Assembly (NCBI GenBank): GCA_944392835.1
Contig: CALXYB010000002.1
Coordinates: 95,917-159,916 of the forward strand
Source of the DNA: an uncultured Alphaproteobacteria bacterium
Lineage (GTDB): Bacteria > Pseudomonadota > Alphaproteobacteria > RF32 > CAG-239
Length of the DNA: 64,000 nucleotides
Reading direction: 5' to 3'
Below the pieces are notes generated by a model. The model was not told the origin of the DNA. It ran no database searches and saw only the letters and a program-made list of their open reading frames with translations. Positions 25,730 to 60,185 of the stretch are shown here, one piece after another (the first letter of the stretch is position 1; the number at the start of each line of letters is the position of its first letter). Position numbers and translations under genes: made by a program.

Positions 25730-27565
25730 TCAGAATCCTGCGGCTGTTTGTATTTTATTTGACATATAAGCACGTTGTACTTGTCTGCTTACAACATTTT
25801 CATCATTGCGGATGATGTTGGCAAGTCTTTTATAAAAAATGCTTCCGGGTGCTAAAATGCGGTCAAAATTGCCATTATCTGCAAAACGCAACAAGTTGCC
25901 TTTTACTCTTTCCTTCTGAGCGGTCTTTTCTTCTTCAGACATCGGTTGCCCCGTCATAAAAGAGTAAAAACGATGTACGGCCGCAGCTTCCAAAGCATCT
26001 CTTGAGGAGATTGAGGCAACATCATTGAGCAAATTATCGTCTATCTTGACACTGCCGTTTACCAAGTCACGATAGCCCAAAACATCACCGTTTTCCTTAA
26101 CACCCCAGATTTGAGCTTGCGCCGTGCGGTAATCAAAGCTTTCTATAACTTTGCGGCGTGCATTGATGTCTTCCTGATTGAACTCTTTATGTTTGCTTGC
26201 TTCATCAAAAACTTTTCCTAAGCCCTCTTTAATACGGCGAGCATAAACAATTTGCGAGCTTCCGCCCTCAATCTTTGCACCTGTTTCCAACAAAACAACA
26301 GCTAACATAAAGGAAACTTTGGGCATAGCCTCGCCGCTTCTTAAAGCCTCGGCAATTTGTTTTCTATCCATATTTTCCGTATATTCGTCACCAAGCATTT
26401 TGGCAAAAGCCGGCATCTTGTTAGAACCCATCGGCACCATATGATCCAGAAGATGATTATATTCATTGTCCGACTTGGTAGTGTGAATCTTCTTCATCTC
26501 GGTTTCAAAAACCGCTCTTGTTTGCGGATTGTCAAAAATCTGTGATGTCAGAGACTGAGGATTCTCCAAAATATCGGCCATAAAAGCAAAAATCGGCTTC
26601 TCTGCTTCTACACTTACCTGAATGACGGAGCTGTCTTTTAATAAGTCATTGGCTTGCATGGCATGAATTGAAGCCAGCTGCAAAGCTCCGAGCTCTGTTT
26701 CCGGTGTGCCTTTTTCCTGATTGTAAGCTCTTTGTTTTTCCAACAATTTCATAACTTTTTTCAGCATTCTGACATCATTTTGAAACTGTTGTTCAACTTG
26801 TGTTGAAAACTCGGTTAAAACATCTTTATGCAACAAAGAAAGTTCTTTTACCGTGTTCATGGATAAATCCTTAAACTCCATACCTTGCGGCATAAATTCT
26901 TTGTTGATTAAGTGATGCCAACGGGCTTTCAAAGATTTTGCAGCCAGAGATTTTTTCTCAAACATATCTTTTTTCATCTCTTTTTCATGCGCTTTTAAGG
27001 CTGCAATTTTTTCCGGCGTATCATATCCGGGAAGTGTCATAGCAATAACTTTCGGATAAATTTTGCTGTACAAATAAAGCGGCGGACCGTAAACAAAGGG
27101 GTCGCAAATCTCGGGGCCGGTCTGGTTATCGGTATTTACGCGGCCAGACATCAGAGATAAATTGAACTTTTCGCCAAAATGATGTGCTCTTGCGGCTTGG
27201 TTAACAAACTTGTAGCAAGAGTGAAACATATTATAGTCATTTTCTTCAACCGTTGCCTCCGCACCACGTTTGTCTCTTTGGCGCATGGGGCCGAGGTGGT
27301 CGGAAAAGTCAAAACGAAAATCTTTTTTCAGCTGTTCATAAAGCTCTTTTGACAATAATTTTCTATTTTCTTCTTCCACTACTGCTGCGTAAGTATCATT
27401 GACGCGTTTTAAAATCTTATACATAAAGCTTTCGGCATAAGGAAAAAGTTTCGGATTATAAGGGTTTTTACTTCCGTCGCTATAAGTTTCTCCTAAAGAA
27501 GCTTCTGTATCAAGGTATGAAAATTCGGGTTTTTTGGCAAGTACGGCCTGACTATATTTACTCAT
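25730..27565 (-). CDS. Large hypothetical protein (611 aa), no recognisable domain
   Basis: Long clean ORF separated from LdcA by 2 nt. The sequence is charged and has no signal peptide or TM helix. Confidence 0.6.
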   Translation of the reverse strand: MSKYSQAVLAKKPEFSYLDTEASLGETYSDGSKNPYNPKLFPYAESFMYKILKRVNDTYAAVVEEENRKLLSKELYEQLKKDFRFDFSDHLGPMRQRDKRGAEATVEENDYNMFHSCYKFVNQAARAHHFGEKFNLSLMSGRVNTDNQTGPEICDPFVYGPPLYLYSKIYPKVIAMTLPGYDTPEKIAALKAHEKEMKKDMFEKKSLAAKSLKARWHHLINKEFMPQGMEFKDLSMNTVKELSLLHKDVLTEFSTQVEQQFQNDVRMLKKVMKLLEKQRAYNQEKGTPETELGALQLASIHAMQANDLLKDSSVIQVSVEAEKPIFAFMADILENPQSLTSQIFDNPQTRAVFETEMKKIHTTKSDNEYNHLLDHMVPMGSNKMPAFAKMLGDEYTENMDRKQIAEALRSGEAMPKVSFMLAVVLLETGAKIEGGSSQIVYARRIKEGLGKVFDEASKHKEFNQEDINARRKVIESFDYRTAQAQIWGVKENGDVLGYRDLVNGSVKIDDNLLNDVASISSRDALEAAAVHRFYSFMTGQPMSEEEKTAQKERVKGNLLRFADNGNFDRILAPGSIFYKRLANIIRNDENVVSRQVQRAYMSNKIQTAAGF

Positions 27566-29298: not shown

Positions 29299-29824
29299 TG
29301 TAACCTTGATATATTATTGGGTGTGAAAGTAATTAAGAAAAGGGAAATATCCCTCTGTATAGTATTATTAGAATTACTGTATGTCTGTTTTATATTATTT
29401 AAATGAATGAAAGTCAATTAAATGTTGTTTGATTTTTATACACAGTCAAAAAGCCCCATATAAATATTTTTAAAATTTTAGTTGTTATTTGTATATCCCT
29501 GCTGTTTATGTGTATAAGTTTTTATTAACAGAGATATCCAAAAGTTAAAAGAATGTTAATAAGATTGTTAACGGAATTTAAGAATTATTAACGAATCGTT
29601 AACTTTGTTTTTCTTGATTCTGTAAACTTTAAATTGAGTATTTTGTTGATAAGTTTTTTTATCAACCCTTGTGCGAAAAAATATACCCCTGTGCGTAAAG
29701 TTGTATATTGGATTTTACATTGTGGTGATTAGTTTGTATAAATATGCAAGAGAGCTTAGTTATGCACAGTTTTGGGCTTGTTTGTGTATAAGTGAGTCAG
29801 GGTTTTGATTTTAAGGAATTTTTT
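29299..29824. other. Candidate chromosomal replication origin (oriC): AT-rich 0.5 kb region with DnaA-box-like and CtrA-box motifs
   Basis: Three exact copies of TTATACACA/TGTGTATAA (29436-29444, 29509-29517, 29783-29791) plus a 1-mismatch copy (29733-29741). A perfect CtrA box lies at 29588-29603. The region sits between rho and coaE-dnaQ. Confidence 0.55.
29588..29603. promoter_or_regulatory. CtrA-box consensus TTAA-N7-TTAAC
   Basis: ttaacgaatcgttaac, with extra overlapping TTAA half-sites upstream. Confidence 0.5.
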
Positions 29825-50255: not shown

Positions 50256-50891
50256 CTAAAGTTTTTTATCCGCAGAGTGGCAATAAGCGACAATCGGGCA
50301 TTCGGCACAATTTGGTTTTTGAGCTTTGCAGATGTATCTGCCAAACAAAACTAGCCAGTGATTGGCGTTTTTGACACAGTTTGCGGGCAGAACTTTCAGT
50401 AAGTCCTTTTCTACCTCCAGCGGTGTTTTGCCGTGAGAGAAGTCCAGACGATGGGAAATGCGCATAACATGCGTATCTACAGCCAGAGTCGGTTCATTAA
50501 ACCAAACATTTAAGACAACATTGGCGGTTTTGCGTCCGACACCGGCCAAACTTTCCAAGGCTTCGCGATTGTGCGGAACTTCTCCGTTGTATTTCTCTAC
50601 CAAGTCTTGGCTCAAGGCCATAATGCTTTTGGCTTTGTTATTAAACAAGCCGATGGTTTTAATATATTCTTTGAGTTTGTCTATGCCGAGGTTGAGCATT
50701 TTTTGCGGTGTGTCGGCAACTTCAAACAGCGTCTTAGTGGCTTTGTTGACACCTTTGTCCGTAGACTGAGCAGACAAGACAACCGCCACCAGCAAAGTAT
50801 AGGCATTTTTATAATCCAGTTCGCAACGCGGGTTGGGGTCGCGCTGGTTGAAGATTTCCATAATCTCAAGAATCTCTTTGGCATTACGCAT
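50256..50891 (-). CDS. nth: Endonuclease III
   Basis: HhH-GPD motif and a C-terminal 4Fe-4S cluster (CxxxxxxCxxCxxxxxC). Start ATG 50889-50891 (MRNAKEI) overlaps the tsaD stop by 1 nt. Confidence 0.92.
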   Translation of the reverse strand: MRNAKEILEIMEIFNQRDPNPRCELDYKNAYTLLVAVVLSAQSTDKGVNKATKTLFEVADTPQKMLNLGIDKLKEYIKTIGLFNNKAKSIMALSQDLVEKYNGEVPHNREALESLAGVGRKTANVVLNVWFNEPTLAVDTHVMRISHRLDFSHGKTPLEVEKDLLKVLPANCVKNANHWLVLFGRYICKAQKPNCAECPIVAYCHSADKKL

Positions 50892-51967
50892 TAGGCTTTT
50901 ACTCCTCCGGCGCCTGCCGCTTTGGGGGCATTGCTGTCTAAGGGCCAACGCGGACGTGGTTTGAAGTCCAGGTCATTGGTGTAGCCTTTGGCAAAGCGCT
51001 CCAAGCCGGCCCAAGCTATCATTACGCCGTTGTCGGTGCAAAAACGAACCGGCGGGGCAGAAAATTCAAGACCATTTTTATCAGCGAGTTCTTTAAGTTT
51101 GCCACGCAGAAAGGTGTTTGCGGCAACACCGCCAGAAACAACCAAATCTTTGCCTTCGGGATAGTTTTGTTTGAAATAGGTGATGGCTTTGGCAAGCTTG
51201 CGTGTTAAACAATCCGTGGCGGCAACTTGAAAAGCGGCGCAGATATCTGCTGCTTCACGCTTGCGCATAATGGCGTGCTCAATATTACCGTCTTCCGAGT
51301 AAGATTCAATAATCTTACGCACGGCGGTTTTTAAGCCGGAGAAAGACAAGTTGCAATCGCCGGAACCAATCAGCGGGCGGGGCAAAACGAATCTGTCCGG
51401 ATTGCCTACCGCAGCCATCTTTTCTATCATTGGGCCGCCGGGGTAGCCTAAGCCCAACATTTTGGCAACCTTGTCAAAAGCCTCGCCGGCAGCGTCATCA
51501 ATGGTGGTTCCTAAGCGCTCATATTCGCCGACATCTTTAACAACGAGTATCTGGCAATGTCCGCCGGAAACCAAAAGCAACAGATAGGGATATTTTACGT
51601 CGCTGGTTAAGCGTGCGGCAAGGGCGTGGCCTTCCAGATGATTGACGGCAACAAAAGGTTTGTTTAGCGCCAGAGCCAAGGCTTTTCCAGCCATGACACC
51701 AACGACAACACCACCGATTAAGCCGGGGCCGGAAGAGGAGGCAATCGCATCAATGTCTTCTAACTTTATGCCGGCACGTTTGACGCAGAGTTCTATAATC
51801 TCGTCAATATGTTCCAAATGCGCGCGTGCGGCAATTTCCGGGACAACACCGCCAAAGGTTTTGTGTTCTTCTTGCGAAAGTAGGCTTTCACCCAGAATCT
51901 CACGCTTGTCATTAACAATGGCGGCGGCTGTTTCATCACAACTGCTTTCTATTCCTAAAACTATCAT
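50891..51967 (-). CDS. tsaD: tRNA N6-adenosine threonylcarbamoyltransferase TsaD
   Basis: Starts MIVLGIESSCDETAAAIV and carries the HxxxH metal motif. The 5' part of the 627-aa tool ORF is a non-coding in-frame extension. Confidence 0.93.
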   Translation of the reverse strand: MIVLGIESSCDETAAAIVNDKREILGESLLSQEEHKTFGGVVPEIAARAHLEHIDEIIELCVKRAGIKLEDIDAIASSSGPGLIGGVVVGVMAGKALALALNKPFVAVNHLEGHALAARLTSDVKYPYLLLLVSGGHCQILVVKDVGEYERLGTTIDDAAGEAFDKVAKMLGLGYPGGPMIEKMAAVGNPDRFVLPRPLIGSGDCNLSFSGLKTAVRKIIESYSEDGNIEHAIMRKREAADICAAFQVAATDCLTRKLAKAITYFKQNYPEGKDLVVSGGVAANTFLRGKLKELADKNGLEFSAPPVRFCTDNGVMIAWAGLERFAKGYTNDLDFKPRPRWPLDSNAPKAAGAGGVKA

Positions 51968-52078
51968 CTGAAAATCCCAAATTTTGTTGCAGTTTTTGTA
52001 AAATCTTAATACATTATAGGCATAGTAATAAACTATATTTGGAAAATTGCCAAGAATTATCAGCAAAGGGGTTGAGAA

Positions 52079-53110
52079 ATGGTCAAAACCGAAGAGCTTG
52101 CAGAGAAAAAACAGCCGGAGGAAAAAGAGCTTCCGAAAGCAAAAATTTCTAAATTTAAGTTGTTTTTTTGGATGATTGTGGTTTTGGCTGTGGTTGGGGT
52201 TTCGCTTTGTCCGCAAACGCTGCTTCGGGTTTATGATTATGCCATTGAGCGTTTGGGTAAAAATGAACCGCAAGGTCCAACGCCGTTGGAGGTTTTGCAA
52301 CAGGAAGTTAATGCTTTGCAAAAGCAACTGGCGCAAATGCAATATCGTTTGGAAAACCAAGGACCGACAACAGCAACTGTGATGATTGATGATGCGGATT
52401 TGGCGATGATGAAAGAGCGTTTGGCAGTTATTGAAAAACAGAATCTGAACGTGATTAACTCTAAGGCAGACGTGGCTTTGGTTTTGGGTCTTTTGACCAG
52501 ACTGGATAAGGCGGAAGCACAAATCGGCAAGCTTACCAAAATCTCGGATGACGGTGCTTTGATTTTGAGTGCGACCATGATGGTCAAGGATACTGCCGAA
52601 AAAGGCGAGCCTTTTGCTTATGAAGCCGAAGTTTTGGATATCTTGGCCAAAGGGGATGCGCAAATCAGCGCTTCCGTGGCAGAGATTGTGAAATATGCGC
52701 CGCAGGGGATTAAGTCTAAGACGGCTTTGATTGCCGAATTTGATGCTCTTTATGAAGAGGCGGTTGCTCAGCAAAAAGCAGAATTTACAAAAACATGGAA
52801 AGACAGACTAAACAGCAAGCTCAACGAAATTATTAAGGTTAAGAAAACCAAAAAAGACGCACCTGAGTTTGAAGAAGATAAGTTGCTTGAAAAAGCCAAG
52901 GGCTTGGTTGATGAAGGAAAATTTGAAAAAGCTATGGCTTTGTTAACAGAAGTTGAGCAAAAAGATGCCAAAACAGCCGCATTGTTGAATGGTTGGTTGG
53001 CTGAAGCTCAGGCAAGATTGGAGTTTGATAAGGCTGTGAGCCAAATTTCGGCTCACTCATTGGCGCTGATGAAAGTGAACTATATTAAAGGAGAAACCGA
53101 TTATGACTAG
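52079..53110 (+). CDS. COG4223 / HemX-like (mitofilin-like) inner-membrane protein
   Basis: One TM helix and a coiled-coil periplasmic region, in the conserved position between tsaD and the HemY-like gene. Confidence 0.65.
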   Translation: MVKTEELAEKKQPEEKELPKAKISKFKLFFWMIVVLAVVGVSLCPQTLLRVYDYAIERLGKNEPQGPTPLEVLQQEVNALQKQLAQMQYRLENQGPTTATVMIDDADLAMMKERLAVIEKQNLNVINSKADVALVLGLLTRLDKAEAQIGKLTKISDDGALILSATMMVKDTAEKGEPFAYEAEVLDILAKGDAQISASVAEIVKYAPQGIKSKTALIAEFDALYEEAVAQQKAEFTKTWKDRLNSKLNEIIKVKKTKKDAPEFEEDKLLEKAKGLVDEGKFEKAMALLTEVEQKDAKTAALLNGWLAEAQARLEFDKAVSQISAHSLALMKVNYIKGETDYD

Positions 53111-54533
53111 AAAAATATCATCTTTTATCTTTATCGGTCTGATTTTTACGCTGGCGGTGTGGATGTCAGACAAAAACAGCGTGATTACCGTTGATTGGCG
53201 CGGGTATGTTAATCGGTTTTCTATTCCCGAGGCCATGCTGTTGGTGTTGGTCTTTGTGGCGGTGGTTGATTTCTTGAACAGAATCTTGCGCAAGCTGGTT
53301 ATGGCTCAGGTGAAAGAAACGTACCGTTATAATCTCGGAAATATGGTAAACGAGGGTGAGGCAATTAATGTTTTGGCTGACAAAATCAGCGAAAAAATCG
53401 TTATTGACCGCCACGACTTTGATAATTCACTTTTGTTGGTTTTGCGCACGATGACAAGTATTACAGCCGGTGATATGAAGGAAGCTCGGATTAACTTGCG
53501 CGCTTTGAAAAAACTGATTGGCAATGACCCGATTATAGATCTCTTGAAGATGAAGATTTATAAGGGAGAAAAAGATTTTGACAAGATGGAAAAGCTGTCT
53601 GCCAAGATTATGAAGAATGATGATATTCGTCTGGTTGGTATGAAAGCTGCCGTTGAAGCTCAGATGCAGAAAAAAGAATTTGCCGAGGCTTTGGCTACGG
53701 CTAACAAAGCTTTTGAACTTCGTCAGGACTTGTATTGGGTTATTGAAAGTGCTTTTGAACTCCGTGCCAAAGCCGGAGATTGGGATGGCGCTTTGCAGGT
53801 TTTGGAATCGGGAAATAAGAAAAAAATTATTCCAAACACAAAATTTAAGCGCCTGAGAGCCATTGTATTATATGAGATGGCTTTGGAGGCACAGAAAAAA
53901 GGTGATGATGTTAACTTCTTCCGTTTGTGTTCTCAAGCAATTGAGTGTGATGAAACTTTGGTTCCTGCCGCTGTTGCAATGGCTAGATATTATAATGCCA
54001 ATGATAATCAGTATCGTAAGGCTGCGAAAGTTTTGTTGAATGCCTGGAATAAAAACCCGACAGCGGACGTTGCTTATGAATATTTAAAACTTTATCCGAA
54101 AGATGATATTACCGCAAAAATTCAGCGTGTTGAGACTTTGGCTCAGACAAATTCTTTGCGTCCGTCTTTGAATAATCTGTTGTTGGCTGAGCTGTCTACG
54201 GAGGCCGGACTTTGGGGTAAGGCTAAAGCTGAGATTGAGATGTTCTTGATCAATAATCCGGCGACCAAAAAGCTGGCTAAGATGATTGCTCAATATGAAA
54301 AGCTTAGCAATAATGATAAAAAAGAAGCGGCTAAATGGAAAAAGAAAGAAGCAACCTGTGCAGATGATGCAATGTGGGTTTGTGATGAGTGTGGTCATGC
54401 TACTGAAGAATGGCAGCCGATTTGTCCGAAATGCGGTTCCTTTGGTTTGAGCCATTGGCGCTTGTATGTTGAGAAACCTGAAAACGAGGCAATCGTTGAG
54501 GTTCAGGCATCAGATGATGATAACGACGAATAA
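53103..54533 (+). CDS. HemY_N-domain TPR membrane protein
   Basis: HemY_N-like N-terminus (two TM helices flanking WRGY), TPR repeats and a C-terminal C4 zinc ribbon. Confidence 0.75.
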   Translation: MTRKISSFIFIGLIFTLAVWMSDKNSVITVDWRGYVNRFSIPEAMLLVLVFVAVVDFLNRILRKLVMAQVKETYRYNLGNMVNEGEAINVLADKISEKIVIDRHDFDNSLLLVLRTMTSITAGDMKEARINLRALKKLIGNDPIIDLLKMKIYKGEKDFDKMEKLSAKIMKNDDIRLVGMKAAVEAQMQKKEFAEALATANKAFELRQDLYWVIESAFELRAKAGDWDGALQVLESGNKKKIIPNTKFKRLRAIVLYEMALEAQKKGDDVNFFRLCSQAIECDETLVPAAVAMARYYNANDNQYRKAAKVLLNAWNKNPTADVAYEYLKLYPKDDITAKIQRVETLAQTNSLRPSLNNLLLAELSTEAGLWGKAKAEIEMFLINNPATKKLAKMIAQYEKLSNNDKKEAAKWKKKEATCADDAMWVCDECGHATEEWQPICPKCGSFGLSHWRLYVEKPENEAIVEVQASDDDNDE

Positions 54534-54599
54534 TTAAAAATTTGGCGGCTGACAGTTTTCTGTCGGCCGTTATTTTAAATAAAATTAGCGGAGAGGGTT

Positions 54600-55997
54600 A
54601 TGGAAAACAATATGCTTAAAAAAGTTTGGTCAGAGAAGTTTAAACAAGTTCCCGAAACATTACAGCGAATCCGTGAAGTTAGGTCTGCGGCGACGGCTTT
54701 TAATACAAATATTGATGCCGTGTTGAAGATTAAGGGTAAGGACTTGGAAAAACTAGCTGCTAAGCAAAAGCTCTCTTTGCAGGACTTGGAGCGTATTGAA
54801 CATACAAAGTTACTAGCTCCGTCTGATGTGGTTAAGGGAATCTTTAAGTGCTTTAAGAACGGTATTGCCGAAGAGTGGTTGACCGAAGATAAGGCAATTT
54901 ATGATTGGATGGTGGAAAATCTGGGCTATGATCGTTTGCAAATGGGCGGGCAAGGCGGTATTGTTGCCAATGTTTTGGCTGTGGTCGGTGTGCAGAAGGT
55001 GGTGGCGCATACAAACTCTTTGCCTAAGCTTCAGGCAGAGCAGTTTTTGCCATTAAAAAATTTGGTTTCTTTTGATGAAAAAGGTGCAGAAAAACCTGCT
55101 TCAGAAATTGACAGAGCCAAAGATATTCCACTCATCCACTGGATTATTGAATTTGATAAGGGTGATGAGGTTGTTTTGGATGGGCAGAAATTTGTTTGCC
55201 CGAAGTCTAATCGCTTTATTGCAACTTATGACCCATTGAACCTTAAACTGGTGGTGGATGAGAATTTTGTTAAGGCTTTGGCAAAAGACAAGGCTGAATA
55301 TATTGTGCTTTCGGGTTTCCATGCCTTAACCGAGCAAAATAACGGTGTTAAGCTGCAGGATGATATTTTGCCGGTTATTAAAAGCTGGAAGGAGCAGGGA
55401 AGCTTAATCCATTTGGAAATTGCATCTACGCAAGATATTGCCGTACGCAAGGCTTTGTTACAAAAAATTGCACCGATTGTTGATTCTATAGGCATCAATG
55501 AGCGTGAGGCGATGGATATTCTGGAAGTTATCGGTGAAGAAGATTTGGCCAAAGAATGCAACGCCAACCCGAACTCAGTGAATATGTTTAAGGCGTTGTT
55601 TAAGATTAAGAAACATATGGAAGCCCCCAGAATCCAGCTGCATATGTTTGGGTTATATATGACTTTGCAAGATGAGGGTTTTAAGATTTCGCCGGAAGCA
55701 AATTTGCGCGGGATGATGTTGGCGGCTACAGTTGCAGCCGGAAAAGCCGGTACGGGAAACATTAATAAAGCTGAGAACTTGTTATGGGCGCAAGGGCAGG
55801 AGGTTTCGGATATCGGGTTAAACGAACTGGCAAAGTTGGCTGATTATGTTAAAAGATCTGATTTACTTGAAACAGGTTTTGCTGCTTATGAAGGTTTTGA
55901 GCTGATTGCTTTGCCGACAATTATTGTTGAGAAGCCTCTGACCTTGGTTGGTATGGGCGACACAATCTCGTCGCTTTCGTTATTGGCTGCCAGATAG
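54600..55997 (+). CDS. ADP-dependent glucokinase/phosphofructokinase family (ribokinase superfamily) sugar kinase-like protein
   Basis: NxNxD motif (AFNTNIDAV), large-domain motif (QMGGQGGIVANVL) and the C-terminal catalytic GxGDxxS motif (VGMGDTISS). Confidence 0.7.
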   Translation: MENNMLKKVWSEKFKQVPETLQRIREVRSAATAFNTNIDAVLKIKGKDLEKLAAKQKLSLQDLERIEHTKLLAPSDVVKGIFKCFKNGIAEEWLTEDKAIYDWMVENLGYDRLQMGGQGGIVANVLAVVGVQKVVAHTNSLPKLQAEQFLPLKNLVSFDEKGAEKPASEIDRAKDIPLIHWIIEFDKGDEVVLDGQKFVCPKSNRFIATYDPLNLKLVVDENFVKALAKDKAEYIVLSGFHALTEQNNGVKLQDDILPVIKSWKEQGSLIHLEIASTQDIAVRKALLQKIAPIVDSIGINEREAMDILEVIGEEDLAKECNANPNSVNMFKALFKIKKHMEAPRIQLHMFGLYMTLQDEGFKISPEANLRGMMLAATVAAGKAGTGNINKAENLLWAQGQEVSDIGLNELAKLADYVKRSDLLETGFAAYEGFELIALPTIIVEKPLTLVGMGDTISSLSLLAAR

Positions 55998-56005
55998 TCG
56001 GTGTT

Positions 56006-56638
56006 ATGTTAAGCAGACTTTCGGAACTAAATGATAGATATATCCAAAACAATGGTTTTGGGTGTGGTGATGAGGCTTTTGTTTTTACGGATAGAAGCTC
56101 AAAGCTTGTTTTGTCGGCACCGCATGCAGTTAAAACATATCTTAACGGCAAAGTGAAATCCGCAGATTTATTTACGGGGGCGTTGGTGGATTTTGTCGGC
56201 GAAAAATGCCAAATCTCAACCCTTATTCGCACATCATATCAGGATAAAGAATATTTAGCCGATGAATTTATTAAGGTGCAGAATATCGGAGAAAAGTTCT
56301 TTTTAGATATTCACGGAATGGTGGACCATGAGGATTTTGAGTTAGCTGTCGGCACGGGATTATTGGAAGCTGACGCATATCAAAAAGCCGTTAATGCCGT
56401 TGGCATTATCGGGGAGAAATATGGACTGCGTAAGGTTCTTAATCATCCCCATTATTCCGGAATTGCCGGAATGAAGGCCTTGACCGCGCGTATGCAGATG
56501 TTTACGGGAAAACCATTGGCTTTGCAGTTGGAAATCGGACGAGAATACAGAGACTTTCAGGAGTTTCCGAAAAAGGTTATAGAAAAAACAGTCCCTTTTT
56601 TGCAAGAGTTGGTTTTGAATCTGGAAAAGCAGCTTTGA
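56006..56638 (+). CDS. Hypothetical protein, possibly N-formylglutamate amidohydrolase (FGase)-like zinc hydrolase
   Basis: FGase-like motifs SAPHAV, ADLFTGALVD and LDIHGM. It starts 9 nt after the kinase stop. Confidence 0.45.
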   Translation: MLSRLSELNDRYIQNNGFGCGDEAFVFTDRSSKLVLSAPHAVKTYLNGKVKSADLFTGALVDFVGEKCQISTLIRTSYQDKEYLADEFIKVQNIGEKFFLDIHGMVDHEDFELAVGTGLLEADAYQKAVNAVGIIGEKYGLRKVLNHPHYSGIAGMKALTARMQMFTGKPLALQLEIGREYRDFQEFPKKVIEKTVPFLQELVLNLEKQL

Positions 56639-58605: not shown

Positions 58606-59478
58606 TCATTTCAAGCTCTCTGCATATTTTTTGCAGAAAAGCTCCAGCAAGTCCCGAACGGTGCTTTCGTCGGTGATTTCTTCCGAAAGCGTTTGGAAAA
58701 CTTGGACATTAAGTTCATCCTCTGTCCAGGCAACTGCCAAATCCCATTCCTGAGCACCGAACCCAACTGGGTGCAGCTCCTTAACTTTGTGAGCTAAGAA
58801 AGCTTCGTTGAAGTCTTTACCTACAGTCTGCGCATAGATGACAGCAGCTTTGGTCTTGAAGCGTTCTACCAGTTGTTCTTTGGTTGGCGGAAGAGCTTTT
58901 AAAACCCGAGCTCGGATATCCGAGATTTTTTCGTTGCCGGCACTGAAGTACTCAGCAATGTCATTAAAGGTTGCTTCTTGGTCCAAGTAAGCCAGCGGCT
59001 GGGTGTCTGCGGAGCTTAACGGACGGCCAGTTAAGTATTCCAGAGCTTCAACCAAATCAATCAGTAAAGTTCTTGGTATTGCCGGACTGTCAACCTTGCG
59101 TGCTAAATCACGCATGGAGCAACCGGACTTATCTATGAAGAATTTCTTGACTTCGTAGGCATCCTTAAATGCAAGGATACTATTCTCTTCGCCGGCATAG
59201 AATTTAACTATGCTTTCAAAGGTTAAATTCTTCTGAAAATAAGTCAAAGCCAATCGGTTGAATTTCTGATTGGTTTTTAAGGCAACAACCTTGACGGCAT
59301 TGCAAAAGTTTATAGCTCTGAAAAAAGCCGGGGCTTTCATCAGAACTTCACCAGCCTGTGAAGGGTCTTGAGCGTTAAACACAACGATGCCTTCGCTGTT
59401 TGCGTACATCGGTTTCAATTTCGGTGATCTGCTTACTAACTCCTGAGCCAGTAAAGCAGAGATTTCAAATTTGTTCAT
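58606..59478 (-). CDS. Hypothetical protein (290 aa), no recognisable domain
   Basis: Clean ORF with its own terminator. No motif recognised. Confidence 0.55.
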   Translation of the reverse strand: MNKFEISALLAQELVSRSPKLKPMYANSEGIVVFNAQDPSQAGEVLMKAPAFFRAINFCNAVKVVALKTNQKFNRLALTYFQKNLTFESIVKFYAGEENSILAFKDAYEVKKFFIDKSGCSMRDLARKVDSPAIPRTLLIDLVEALEYLTGRPLSSADTQPLAYLDQEATFNDIAEYFSAGNEKISDIRARVLKALPPTKEQLVERFKTKAAVIYAQTVGKDFNEAFLAHKVKELHPVGFGAQEWDLAVAWTEDELNVQVFQTLSEEITDESTVRDLLELFCKKYAESLK

Positions 59479-59609: not shown

Positions 59610-60185
59610 CTATTCATCCGAGTAAAATTCTATCAAATCTTTGATAGTTTTTTTGAGGATGAAGTCTTCATTCGGTGCTTTTCCGAATCGTTCTTCGCAC
59701 CAGCGTAGTACAGTTCGGTAGAAGTTATAGTCTTGGAAGTCTGCCGGAAGCATCATGTTAATTTTGGTGCTTTCGTCCAAATCCTTAACTTCTTTGTTTA
59801 GACAATCGGCTAAAAATTGTTTTACTTGAGTAGCGGTTGTCTTTGGTTTCATCAATTCTGCCCGAATTAATGCTGAGGTTTTGGGGTCAGCGCAAAAAAA
59901 TTCGGCAAATTTTATGGCCGGTAAATCCTTTTCTTGTAAACGGCGCTCTACATAATCCCATTCGGCCTTGTTGTTGAGGGCAAATGAGCGGCATCTTGCG
60001 CGAGAGCGCATGAGGTCAACTATTTCCTTAAAATAAGGGAAAGATACGTTTCCTCCGTTCAAGGAAATCATCAAGCCTTCTACTTGCTGTTTGGTGAAGG
60101 CGGTCTTATGACGGATAATGTTAATTGCATCTCTCCGTCTTAATGTCGTTGTTGCCATAATATTAAGTTTTAAATTAGACATCAT
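59610..60185 (-). CDS. Hypothetical protein (191 aa), no recognisable domain
   Basis: Clean ORF with its own terminator. No motif recognised. Confidence 0.5.
   Translation of the reverse strand: MMSNLKLNIMATTTLRRRDAINIIRHKTAFTKQQVEGLMISLNGGNVSFPYFKEIVDLMRSRARCRSFALNNKAEWDYVERRLQEKDLPAIKFAEFFCADPKTSALIRAELMKPKTTATQVKQFLADCLNKEVKDLDESTKINMMLPADFQDYNFYRTVLRWCEERFGKAPNEDFILKKTIKDLIEFYSDE

Follow-up and report, generated by a model that had tools for sequence, protein, structure and literature searches.

Two adjacent genes in a window of 64,000 nucleotides (the whole stretch of DNA that was analysed) probably encode a glucokinase-type ADP-dependent hexokinase and an amidohydrolase, two enzymes that are made from one transcript in this organism without forming an obligate functional pair. 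The upstream gene and its diagnostic motifs lie at the following positions.

54600..55997, + strand: ADP-dependent sugar kinase (PF04587) with a glucokinase-type residue signature, 465 aa
54702..54716, + strand: NTNID, the sugar-binding NxNxD motif (N35, N37, D39; aa 35-39)
54945..54971, + strand: GGQGGIVAN loop with predicted sugar contacts G116, G117, and Q118 (aa 116-124)
55134..55139, + strand: codons 179-180 (I-H), with H180 at the position of AncMsPFK N181
55950..55970, + strand: GMGDTIS (aa 451-457), the GxGD motif with the predicted catalytic base D454

Judged by its sequence, the 465-aa product is clearly a genuine member of the "archaeal-type" ADP-dependent sugar kinase family. The earlier note on this DNA had made this assignment and named PF04587 as the check; a Pfam profile search gave a strong match to that family (248.1 bits, E 1.8e-73; gathering cutoff 27), in which kinase residues 30-462 covered profile positions 3-429 of 430. 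The coordinates of the reading frame and the three hallmark motifs (NxNxD, the GGQ loop, and GxGD) were found exactly as that note had given them, and the catalytic Asp of the GxGD motif was retained on alignment. The best solved relatives of the kinase were ADP-PFK/GK enzymes, with E values from 1.7e-63 to 1e-35. D471 serves as the catalytic base of AncMsPFK (PMC7948494), and D454 is the equivalent Asp of the kinase, where G451-M-G-D454 aligned with the GIGD of 6c8z and 1l2l. Residues N35, N37, D39, G116, G117, Q118, and R205 (the equivalent of AncMsPFK R206) were also aligned and conserved, with N35, D39, R205, and D454 each invariant in 84 sequences. The phosphoryl donor would be ADP. In the proposed mechanism, the enzyme would convert glucose and ADP into glucose-6-phosphate and AMP, as a glucokinase-type hexokinase that depends on ADP; the sugar would be held by N35/D39, E92, G116-G117-Q118, H180, and H241, with D454 acting as the catalytic base, R205 touching the ADP beta-phosphate, and N300-x-x-E303 serving the Mg site.

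Residues that discriminate glucokinases (GK) from phosphofructokinases (PFK) in this family have been defined in AncMsPFK: conservation of K179, N181, and R212 is confined to PFK and bifunctional enzymes and that of E90 to GK and bifunctional enzymes, the N181 position is occupied by His in glucokinases, and alanine mutants of K179, N181, and R212 raise the KM for fructose-6-phosphate 200- to 1000-fold (PMC7948494). The kinase carries E92, L178, H180, D211, and H241 at the discriminating positions, the last of these where PFKs carry Q244. It thus has the GK combination of Glu at E90 and His at N181, with neither Lys nor Arg at K179 and R212, and departs from the PFK/bifunctional pattern by having Leu, His, and Asp in place of K179, N181, and R212. 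At these sites it agreed with the Pyrococcus horikoshii GK (CIH, AAD, SGLH) and disagreed with four PFK/bifunctional structures (PKxN, SRP or ARF, SGYQ), all of which have the K, N, and R residues. E92, H180, and D211 were invariant in the 84 sequences and L178 was found in 76 of them; the H241 position was Q or N in 13 of the 84. On this signature, the 465-aa protein looks like a glucokinase.

It is very unlikely that the kinase acts at the third glycolytic step, whether as an ADP-dependent phosphofructokinase or as a bifunctional PFK/GK. Such an enzyme would fit the finding that the top solved relative was AncMsPFK, the Methanosarcinales ancestral ADP-PFK (6c8z, 6xio; PMC7948494), which ranked above the glucokinases (E 1.7e-63), aligned with kinase residues 10-462 of 465, and whose catalytic Asp, R206, and E90 have retained equivalents in the kinase. 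It would also fit the score against the ADP-PFK model TIGR02045 (211 bits, below its cutoff of 408), which was about equal to the scores against the GK models. However, the kinase differs from AncMsPFK in lacking precisely the fructose-6-phosphate-binding residues, as well as in having His for Q244, and its global identity was about 32% to both the PFK ancestor and the P. horikoshii GK. The two NCBIfam GK equivalog models, which were trained on archaeal enzymes, were likewise missed at their cutoffs (NF010642, 224.5 against 387; NF010641, 213.6 against 554). With three models scoring about equally and all under cutoff, the equivalog scores were dropped as an arbiter between GK and PFK. Because of these sub-cutoff scores and the equal distance to GK and PFK, the assignment of glucose is drawn from a few specificity residues, and the glucokinase-type enzyme may instead act on an amino sugar or on a different unphosphorylated hexose.

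Comparison with the archaeal ADP-GKs of Pyrococcus and Thermococcus (1l2l, 1ua4, 1gc5) revealed that PF04587 membership, the NxNxD, NxxE, and GxGD motifs, and the GGQ loop are common to both, as are the specificity residues Glu, His, Asp, and His at the E90, N181, R212, and Q244 positions. The kinase differs from these enzymes in its low identity (about 32%), in falling under both NCBIfam GK cutoffs, in having a mesophilic bacterium as host, and in being a syntenic core gene of gut Alphaproteobacteria with sister copies in some Bacteroidales; within PF04587, it falls into a bacterial subfamily. The earlier description of the family as mainly archaeal and eukaryotic and rare in bacteria needs qualifying as regards rarity, as 1013 relatives (E<=1e-10) were found among 8000 protein-database candidates scored and 142 stretches of species-representative genomes encode a relative. 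Of 80 species loci, all from uncultured gut or rumen Alphaproteobacteria, about 76 kept the block nth (-), tsaD (-), 343-aa protein (+), hemY-like (+), kinase (+), with kinase identities of 51-99%. The gene is therefore a vertically inherited, syntenic core gene of this lineage. Recent horizontal acquisition in this genome was rejected in view of this lineage-wide synteny together with an unremarkable GC content (0.41-0.42 in 2-kb windows over the gene pair, inside the range seen in nearby windows).

Work on ADP-dependent sugar kinases has dealt almost wholly with archaea and mammals. Our literature search found no biochemical data on bacterial PF04587 members, the sources stating only that such members exist, and NCBI already names such proteins from metagenome-assembled genomes (MAGs) "ADP-dependent glucokinase/phosphofructokinase". 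The lineage-wide bacterial subfamily offers a defined system in which to test why mesophilic, anaerobic bacteria of the gut would use ADP over ATP at the first step of glycolysis, and MAG metabolic reconstructions that seek only ATP-dependent glucokinases may miss the ADP-dependent enzyme. Genomes of the order Rs-D84 have been described as lacking glucokinase (PMC12306168); this was given no weight here, as membership of the present host in that order was not established.

The kinase gene is flanked by the following signals.

54543..54572, + strand: terminator-like hairpin with a 13 bp stem including 7 G-C pairs, then a T-run (pattern scan)
54590..54597, + strand: Shine-Dalgarno-like GGAGAGGG, 2 nt before the kinase ATG (read from the sequence)
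55998..56005, + strand: intergenic spacer 'tcggtgtt', 8 nt, with only a weak GGTG ribosome-binding element

The hairpin sits between the hemY-like gene and the kinase gene, suggesting that the kinase opens a new transcription unit after this putative terminator. Because this strong terminator-like element separates the two genes, we did not assume that they form a single operon. On the downstream side, the kinase stop codon TAG ends at 55997 and the ATG of the next gene starts at 56006, so that the ATG begins 9 nt past the stop across an 8-nt spacer, in agreement with the distance reported earlier. In relatives, most lineages with the two genes linked had a junction of -1 to 20 nt. This tightness makes co-transcription likely wherever the genes are linked, and translation of the two genes may be coupled across the 8-nt spacer by reinitiation.

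The downstream gene encodes a protein of 210 aa (hereafter protein 2), with the following features.

56006..56638, + strand: predicted cytoplasmic metallo-amidohydrolase, 210 aa, of the FGase/poly-gamma-glutamate-hydrolase superfamily
56114..56131, + strand: SAPHAV (aa 37-42), with H40 as the putative first metal ligand; invariant in A1 and A2
56306..56320, + strand: DIHGM (aa 101-105), with H103 as the putative second metal ligand; D101 invariant
56531..56533, + strand: E176 in an LQLE motif, the putative catalytic general base

Protein 2 represents a small family without a curated model that lies between FGase and the poly-gamma-glutamate hydrolases, and this family would merit a model of its own. 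Single-sequence and profile searches of Pfam, NCBIfam, PHROGs, and PDB sequences returned nothing usable, and the superfamily emerged only from structure comparison and family-wide scans. The earlier label "FGase-like" stood at the level of superfamily and fold, as protein 2 has an FGase-type fold, but not at the level of the PF05013 profile, which did not match the window protein even at E<=10 (gathering threshold 28.9 bits) and matched 11 of 33 family members weakly (best E 2e-5). PF05908 did not match the window protein either, nor did any NCBIfam model at E<=0.01.

The reading frame of protein 2 and its SAPHAV, DLFTGAL (aa 54-60), and DIHGM motifs exist as previously noted. H40, D54, D101, and H103 were invariant in the 33-member family alignment, E176 was also present and invariant, and H103 aligned with the HG-motif His of 21dc, a PghP-type hydrolase. 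Given the fold similarity and published work on PghP (PMC6506827), H40 would be the equivalent of PghP His40, and E176 would correspond to Glu165 of PghP/PghL and Glu270 of carboxypeptidase A (PMC6506827). Since the Glu found five residues after this His in PghP is missing in protein 2 (Y45), the third metal ligand would be D54 or D101. Protein 2 would thus act as a cytoplasmic mono-metal amidohydrolase with the metal bound by H40, H103, and one of these two Asp residues and with E176 as the general base. Through the conserved K51, R75, and R182, protein 2 probably binds a substrate that is anionic and most likely carries a glutamate-type carboxylate.

These features set protein 2 apart from both neighboring families. 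Compared with FGase family members (PF05013; 2q7s; Atu2144, 2odf), it has no reportable Pfam score, is shorter (210 aa against 250-280 aa), is only 13-19% identical, and was not seen in a hut context. Compared with PghP/PghL(YndL) (PF05908, MEROPS M86; 3a9l, 5onj), it lacks the second ligand of the HxxxxE motif, with Tyr at H40+5, and has no evident secretion signal, whereas PghP/PghL act on an extracellular polymer. A role for protein 2 in histidine catabolism as a genuine N-formylglutamate amidohydrolase (HutG) is highly improbable: against this reading stand the failed PF05013 and NCBIfam matches of the window protein, the lack of adjoining hut genes in the loci examined, the equal closeness of the family to poly-gamma-glutamate hydrolases and FGase, and the fact that its relatives associate not with hut genes but with glutamate ligases (RimK, Mur-ligase family).

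We compared the occurrence of the two genes across loci. Protein 2 was present at 10 of the 80 kinase loci, always directly downstream and on the same strand, while the remaining 70 species keep the kinase at the same locus without it. Conversely, about 45 of 75 protein 2 loci (about two thirds) lacked the kinase. Two unlinked protein 2 loci that were sampled belong to the same lineage (RadA 80% and NrdA/B 72-83% identical to those of the window), and at one locus (L109) protein 2 occupied the same slot with the kinase absent. No conserved neighbors of unlinked protein 2 genes were found in the loci examined, where the genes nearby, identified from their sequences by eye, were ClpX-, DnaB-, AspS-, MurJ-, and Psd-like. 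In addition, a histidine-phosphatase-like gene was seen near protein 2 at three loci, two of them from closely related genomes. Protein 2 is therefore an optional, lineage-specific accessory gene, which only a minority of species keep behind the kinase, and tight adjacency in a single genome was insufficient for inferring a pathway.

The two-enzyme pathway suggested by the earlier note was thus poorly supported in view of the 10/80 pairing, although the kinase family on which it was built was upheld. We consider unlikely a real two-step pathway in which a sugar or nucleoside with an N-acyl group or a glutamyl conjugate is first phosphorylated by the kinase and then deacylated by the amidase, or the two steps follow the opposite order. 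This pathway would account for the invariable kinase-to-amidase order on one strand wherever the pair is linked, for the short junctions (-1 to 20 nt) found in several divergent lineages, and for P0214, a distant relative from an unrelated organism in which a PfkB ribokinase-like kinase is fused to a protein-2-like domain. PfkB belongs to the same superfamily as PF04587, and genes for a HAD phosphatase, a Mur-ligase-family enzyme, and a PurU-like protein share a tight operon with the P0214 fusion. However, each gene commonly occurs without the other, same-lineage loci included; the unlinked amidase genes lie among unrelated housekeeping genes; and the sugar-site residues of the kinase are of the glucose-specific type with or without the amidase (invariant in 84). 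From the 150 best representatives of the broader family, 20 fusion proteins were selected for scanning; a kinase was the partner in only one of them, the other partners being S-layer, SH3, fn3, and RimK domains.

Counting against the preferred reading, the PfkB fusion and the tight linkage retained in at least five divergent lineages suggest that protein 2 may nevertheless have some functional connection to a sugar kinase. It seems quite unlikely that this connection is an undescribed salvage route, in which a kinase of the ribokinase superfamily and an amidase of the protein 2 type would share one substrate, namely a sugar, nucleoside, or pterin-like metabolite with a glutamyl or acyl conjugate; if it were, the substrate of the ADP-dependent enzyme in amidase-carrying species would be something other than free glucose.

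The 465-aa kinase and the 210-aa protein downstream of it (hereafter protein 2) were both present as ORFs as claimed in an earlier note on this DNA, and all motifs quoted there were in place: NTNID (aa 35-39), GGQGGIVAN (116-124) and GMGDTIS (451-457) in the kinase, and SAPHAV, DLFTGAL and DIHGM in protein 2. The features of the locus are as follows.

Features of the gene pair (positions in the window)
50256-55997: conserved block of nth(-), tsaD(-), 343-aa protein(+), hemY-like TPR/zinc-ribbon protein(+) and kinase(+)
54543-54572: strong terminator-like hairpin, 5' of the kinase
54600-55997, + strand: kinase, 465 aa, TAG stop at 55995-55997
8-nt spacer, tcggtgtt: between the kinase stop and the ATG of protein 2
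56006-56638, + strand: protein 2, 210 aa

The kinase has its own ribosome-binding site, GGAGAGGG. In the window only a weak GGTG lies ahead of the protein 2 ATG, which makes reinitiation-type coupling from the kinase to protein 2 plausible, if unproven. A convergent aroK lies 3 nt past the protein 2 stop.

PF04587 matched the full length of the kinase (248 bits against a Pfam cutoff of 27; E 1.8e-73), and all 14 PDB sequence matches were ADP-dependent glucokinases (GKs), phosphofructokinases (PFKs) or bifunctional enzymes, led by the ancestral Methanosarcinales enzyme AncMsPFK (6c8z/6xio; E 1.7e-63) and followed by Pyrococcus and Thermococcus glucokinases. Asp-454 of the GxGD motif aligned with D471 of AncMsPFK, the catalytic base (PMC7948494), and was invariant, together with N35, D39, G116, Q118, R205, N300 and E303, in all 84 aligned kinase sequences (the window, 79 species-level genome loci and L001-L004). 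Since the PF04587 match was found and the catalytic aspartate is retained, the assignment to the ADP-dependent sugar kinase family, made in the earlier note, holds.

Next, we considered the substrate type. Conservation of K179, N181 and R212 (AncMsPFK numbering) is limited to PFK and bifunctional enzymes, and that of E90 to GK and bifunctional enzymes; Ala mutants of the first three show a 200- to 1000-fold higher KM for fructose-6-phosphate, and specific glucokinases have His at the N181 position (PMC7948494). These positions were mapped to the kinase via ungapped blocks of HMMER alignments, and four PFK/bifunctional structures were compared over the same segment (ancMT, M. jannaschii PFK/GK, P. 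horikoshii PFK and AncMsPFK).

Residues at the specificity positions
K179-x-N181: PFK/bifunctional, P-K-x-N; P. horikoshii GK (1l2l), C-I-H; window kinase, P-L178-I-H180
R212: PFK/bifunctional, S-R-P (P. horikoshii PFK, A-R-F); P. horikoshii GK, A-A-D; window kinase, Y-D211-P
Q244: PFK/bifunctional, SGYQ; P. horikoshii GK, SGLH; window kinase, SGF-H241
E90: PFK/bifunctional, variable; P. horikoshii GK, Glu; window kinase, E92

Like P. horikoshii GK, the window kinase has His at the N181 and Q244 positions and a non-Arg residue at R212, whereas AncMsPFK and the other PFK/bifunctional structures have K, N, R and Q in place of L178, H180, D211 and H241. Across the 84 sequences, E92, H180 and D211 were invariant, and L178 and H241 were found in 76 and 71, respectively. 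AncMsPFK and P. horikoshii GK were equally close, each at about 32% global identity. The NCBIfam equivalog models could not decide between GK and PFK because all scores were under the cutoffs (224.5 and 213.6 bits for two GK models, 211 bits for the PFK model). From the specificity residues, we conclude that the kinase is a glucokinase-type enzyme whose substrate would be an unphosphorylated hexose; we infer glucose as the most likely sugar.

A protein database search in which 8000 candidates were scored yielded 1013 relatives with E<=1e-10; the 120 matches listed were 62-100% identical to the kinase and included a few named entries ('MAG: ADP-dependent glucokinase/phosphofructokinase [Alphaproteobacteria bacterium]'). 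A genome scan identified 80 kinase loci in species-representative genomes, almost all from uncultured Alphaproteobacteria of gut, rumen or faecal origin (among the labels are Proteobacteria bacterium CAG:495, Candidatus Scatocola faecigallinarum and 'Acetobacter sp. 46_36'); one contig, CASFUZ010000002.1, was about 99% identical to the window. The block nth(-), tsaD(-), 343-aa protein(+), usually the hemY-like TPR protein(+), and kinase(+) recurred in about 76 of the 80 loci, often with aroK(-), xerD(+) and rsmA(-) 3' of the kinase. The kinase is thus a vertically inherited core gene of the lineage, and this lineage-wide synteny rules out a recent insertion. GC across the pair (0.41-0.42 in 2-kb windows) lay inside the range of surrounding windows.

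Four of the 80 loci (L078, L080, L084 and L085) were Bacteroidales/Marinilabiliales MAGs with kinases of about 52-54% identity, on contigs without the alphaproteobacterial synteny; another, labelled Bacteroidaceae (L076), shared the gene order of the alphaproteobacterial loci and probably reflects mis-binning. In a neighbour-joining tree from a modest alignment, the Bacteroidales copies were sister to all alphaproteobacterial ones, and both groups were about 31% identical to archaeal references, which fits an old bacterial subfamily common to both phyla. The kinase belongs to a well-known family, and public MAG records annotate it correctly at that level; for this uncharacterised bacterial member we add the glucokinase-type call and the lineage-wide core-gene status.

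Among the neighbouring genes, the 343-aa protein (52079-53110) is hydrophobic over an N-terminal stretch and has charged, helix-like sequence, with no match in Pfam or PHROG; its position beside the hemY-like gene is reminiscent of that of the alphaproteobacterial Mic60-like gene. Two ORFs between xerD and rsmA (58606-59478, -, 290 aa; 59610-60185, -, 191 aa) also had no Pfam or PHROG match; they were 67-100% identical in close relatives only and barely recognisable (24-35%) elsewhere in the lineage.

We then examined whether the pair forms a module. Of the 80 kinase loci, just 10 contained protein 2 when searched with an HMM of its family, in each case directly downstream on the same strand; the other 70 species kept the kinase and its synteny with protein 2 absent. 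Conversely, 75 loci were recovered from metagenomes with the protein 2 profile, of which about 24 were kinase-linked, many from one species group, and about 45 had no kinase in the sequence available (for 14 of these, the flanks extended 5-6 kb each way). Of the unlinked loci sampled, at least two belong to the window's own lineage, one with a RadA 80% identical to the window's (L102) and one with NrdA and NrdB 72% and 83% identical (L004). No recurrent partner of unlinked copies was found among the neighbours examined, all unrelated housekeeping genes. In L109 (30-1195), on a short metagenome contig, protein 2 starts 8 nt past a 343-aa-protein homolog; neither a hemY-like gene nor a kinase lies between them, and a CorC-type gene converges on protein 2. 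Here the kinase appears to be absent from the position it usually occupies.

In a neighbour-joining tree, again from a modest alignment, kinase-linked protein 2 copies were confined to one half, which also contained a small number of unlinked copies; the other half consisted of unlinked copies only. The pattern suggests that protein 2 was captured once downstream of the kinase and then passed on vertically, often being lost and occasionally moved elsewhere. In linked pairs, the genes were separated by -1, 7, 8, 11, 18 or 20 nt, rarely 65 or 129 nt; such short junctions make co-transcription likely. That the two proteins serve one functional pathway, as the earlier note suggested, seems unlikely. 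In favour of some functional link is P0214, a fusion protein of the broader family in which a PfkB ribokinase-like kinase and a protein-2-like domain are combined; this kinase fusion is a single case. Its gene is the second of an overlapping-gene operon, after that for a HAD phosphatase and before those for Mur-ligase-family and PurU-like proteins. The operon occurs at L162-L164 (e.g. L162 2041-6303), and its PurU-like protein is of the formyl-THF deformylase type.

Searched alone, protein 2 matched no Pfam model, even with the threshold relaxed to E<=10, and no entry in NCBIfam, PHROGs or PDB sequences. Its relatives provide sequence links to the FGase family: PF05013 weakly matched 11 of 33 family members, and the weakest homolog, P0041, carries PF05013, aligned to the family profile with 98.7% probability (hhalign) and has SAPHA, D-x-FTG, LDIHGM and LQLE...RD in common with it. 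The 40 close homologs (about 205-232 aa) have, among others, H40, D54, R75, D101, H103, N146, Y150, Q174, E176 and R182 invariant, and the AlphaFold2 model from the homolog alignment was very confident (pLDDT 96.6, pTM 0.92). In an exhaustive HMMER search, protein 2 proper comprised only about 18 full-length 50%-identity clusters, to E about 1e-58; beyond a gap, a broader set began at E about 1e-27, for a total of 823 clusters at E<=1e-3. Scanning 53 sequences (protein 2 and 52 broader-set members) detected PF05013 in 27 and PF05908 in five, with H40, T57, G58, D101, H103 and E176 still invariant.

The poly-gamma-glutamate hydrolases PghP and PghL bind zinc through His40/41, Glu45/46 and His103/102 and use Glu165 in catalysis (PMC6506827). 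In a profile alignment with a PghP-type hydrolase, H103 coincided with the His of the HG motif and E176 with the Glu of QLE. Unlike these enzymes, which have a Glu ligand at H+5, protein 2 has Y45 there, so its third metal ligand is probably D54 or D101. Its N-terminus is a predicted amphipathic helix without a hydrophobic signal sequence, from which we infer a cytoplasmic enzyme acting on a small anionic amide. Protein 2 belongs to a small family without a curated model inside a known superfamily, whose dominant theme is amide bonds involving glutamate; neither it nor the kinase is categorically new.

Several broader-family relatives carry S-layer, SH3 or fn3 domains, and in P0250 the protein-2-like domain has a RimK-type alpha-L-glutamate ligase as its fusion partner. 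The most divergent protein-2-like genes (28% identical; GC 0.52-0.58; L156-L161, e.g. L160 4806-9564) lie in overlapping-gene operons ordered Mur-ligase-family, protein-2-like, 527-aa protein with a weak CDC48_N-like signal, Mur-ligase-family; in P0208 the hydrolase is fused to this 527-aa type. These may represent an uncharacterised ligase/hydrolase system.

Elsewhere in the window, a 611-aa ORF (25730-27565, -) without a Pfam match at E<=1e-5 adjoins an LD-carboxypeptidase (Peptidase_S66) gene. A 526-bp AT-rich gap (29299-29824; GC about 0.32) between divergent rho(-) and coaE(+) is a candidate chromosomal replication origin; it coincides with the cumulative GC skew minimum, contains 5 of the window's 30 DnaA boxes (one mismatch) within 29436-29791, and has a parB-parA-rsmG...mnmG-mnmE cluster upstream.
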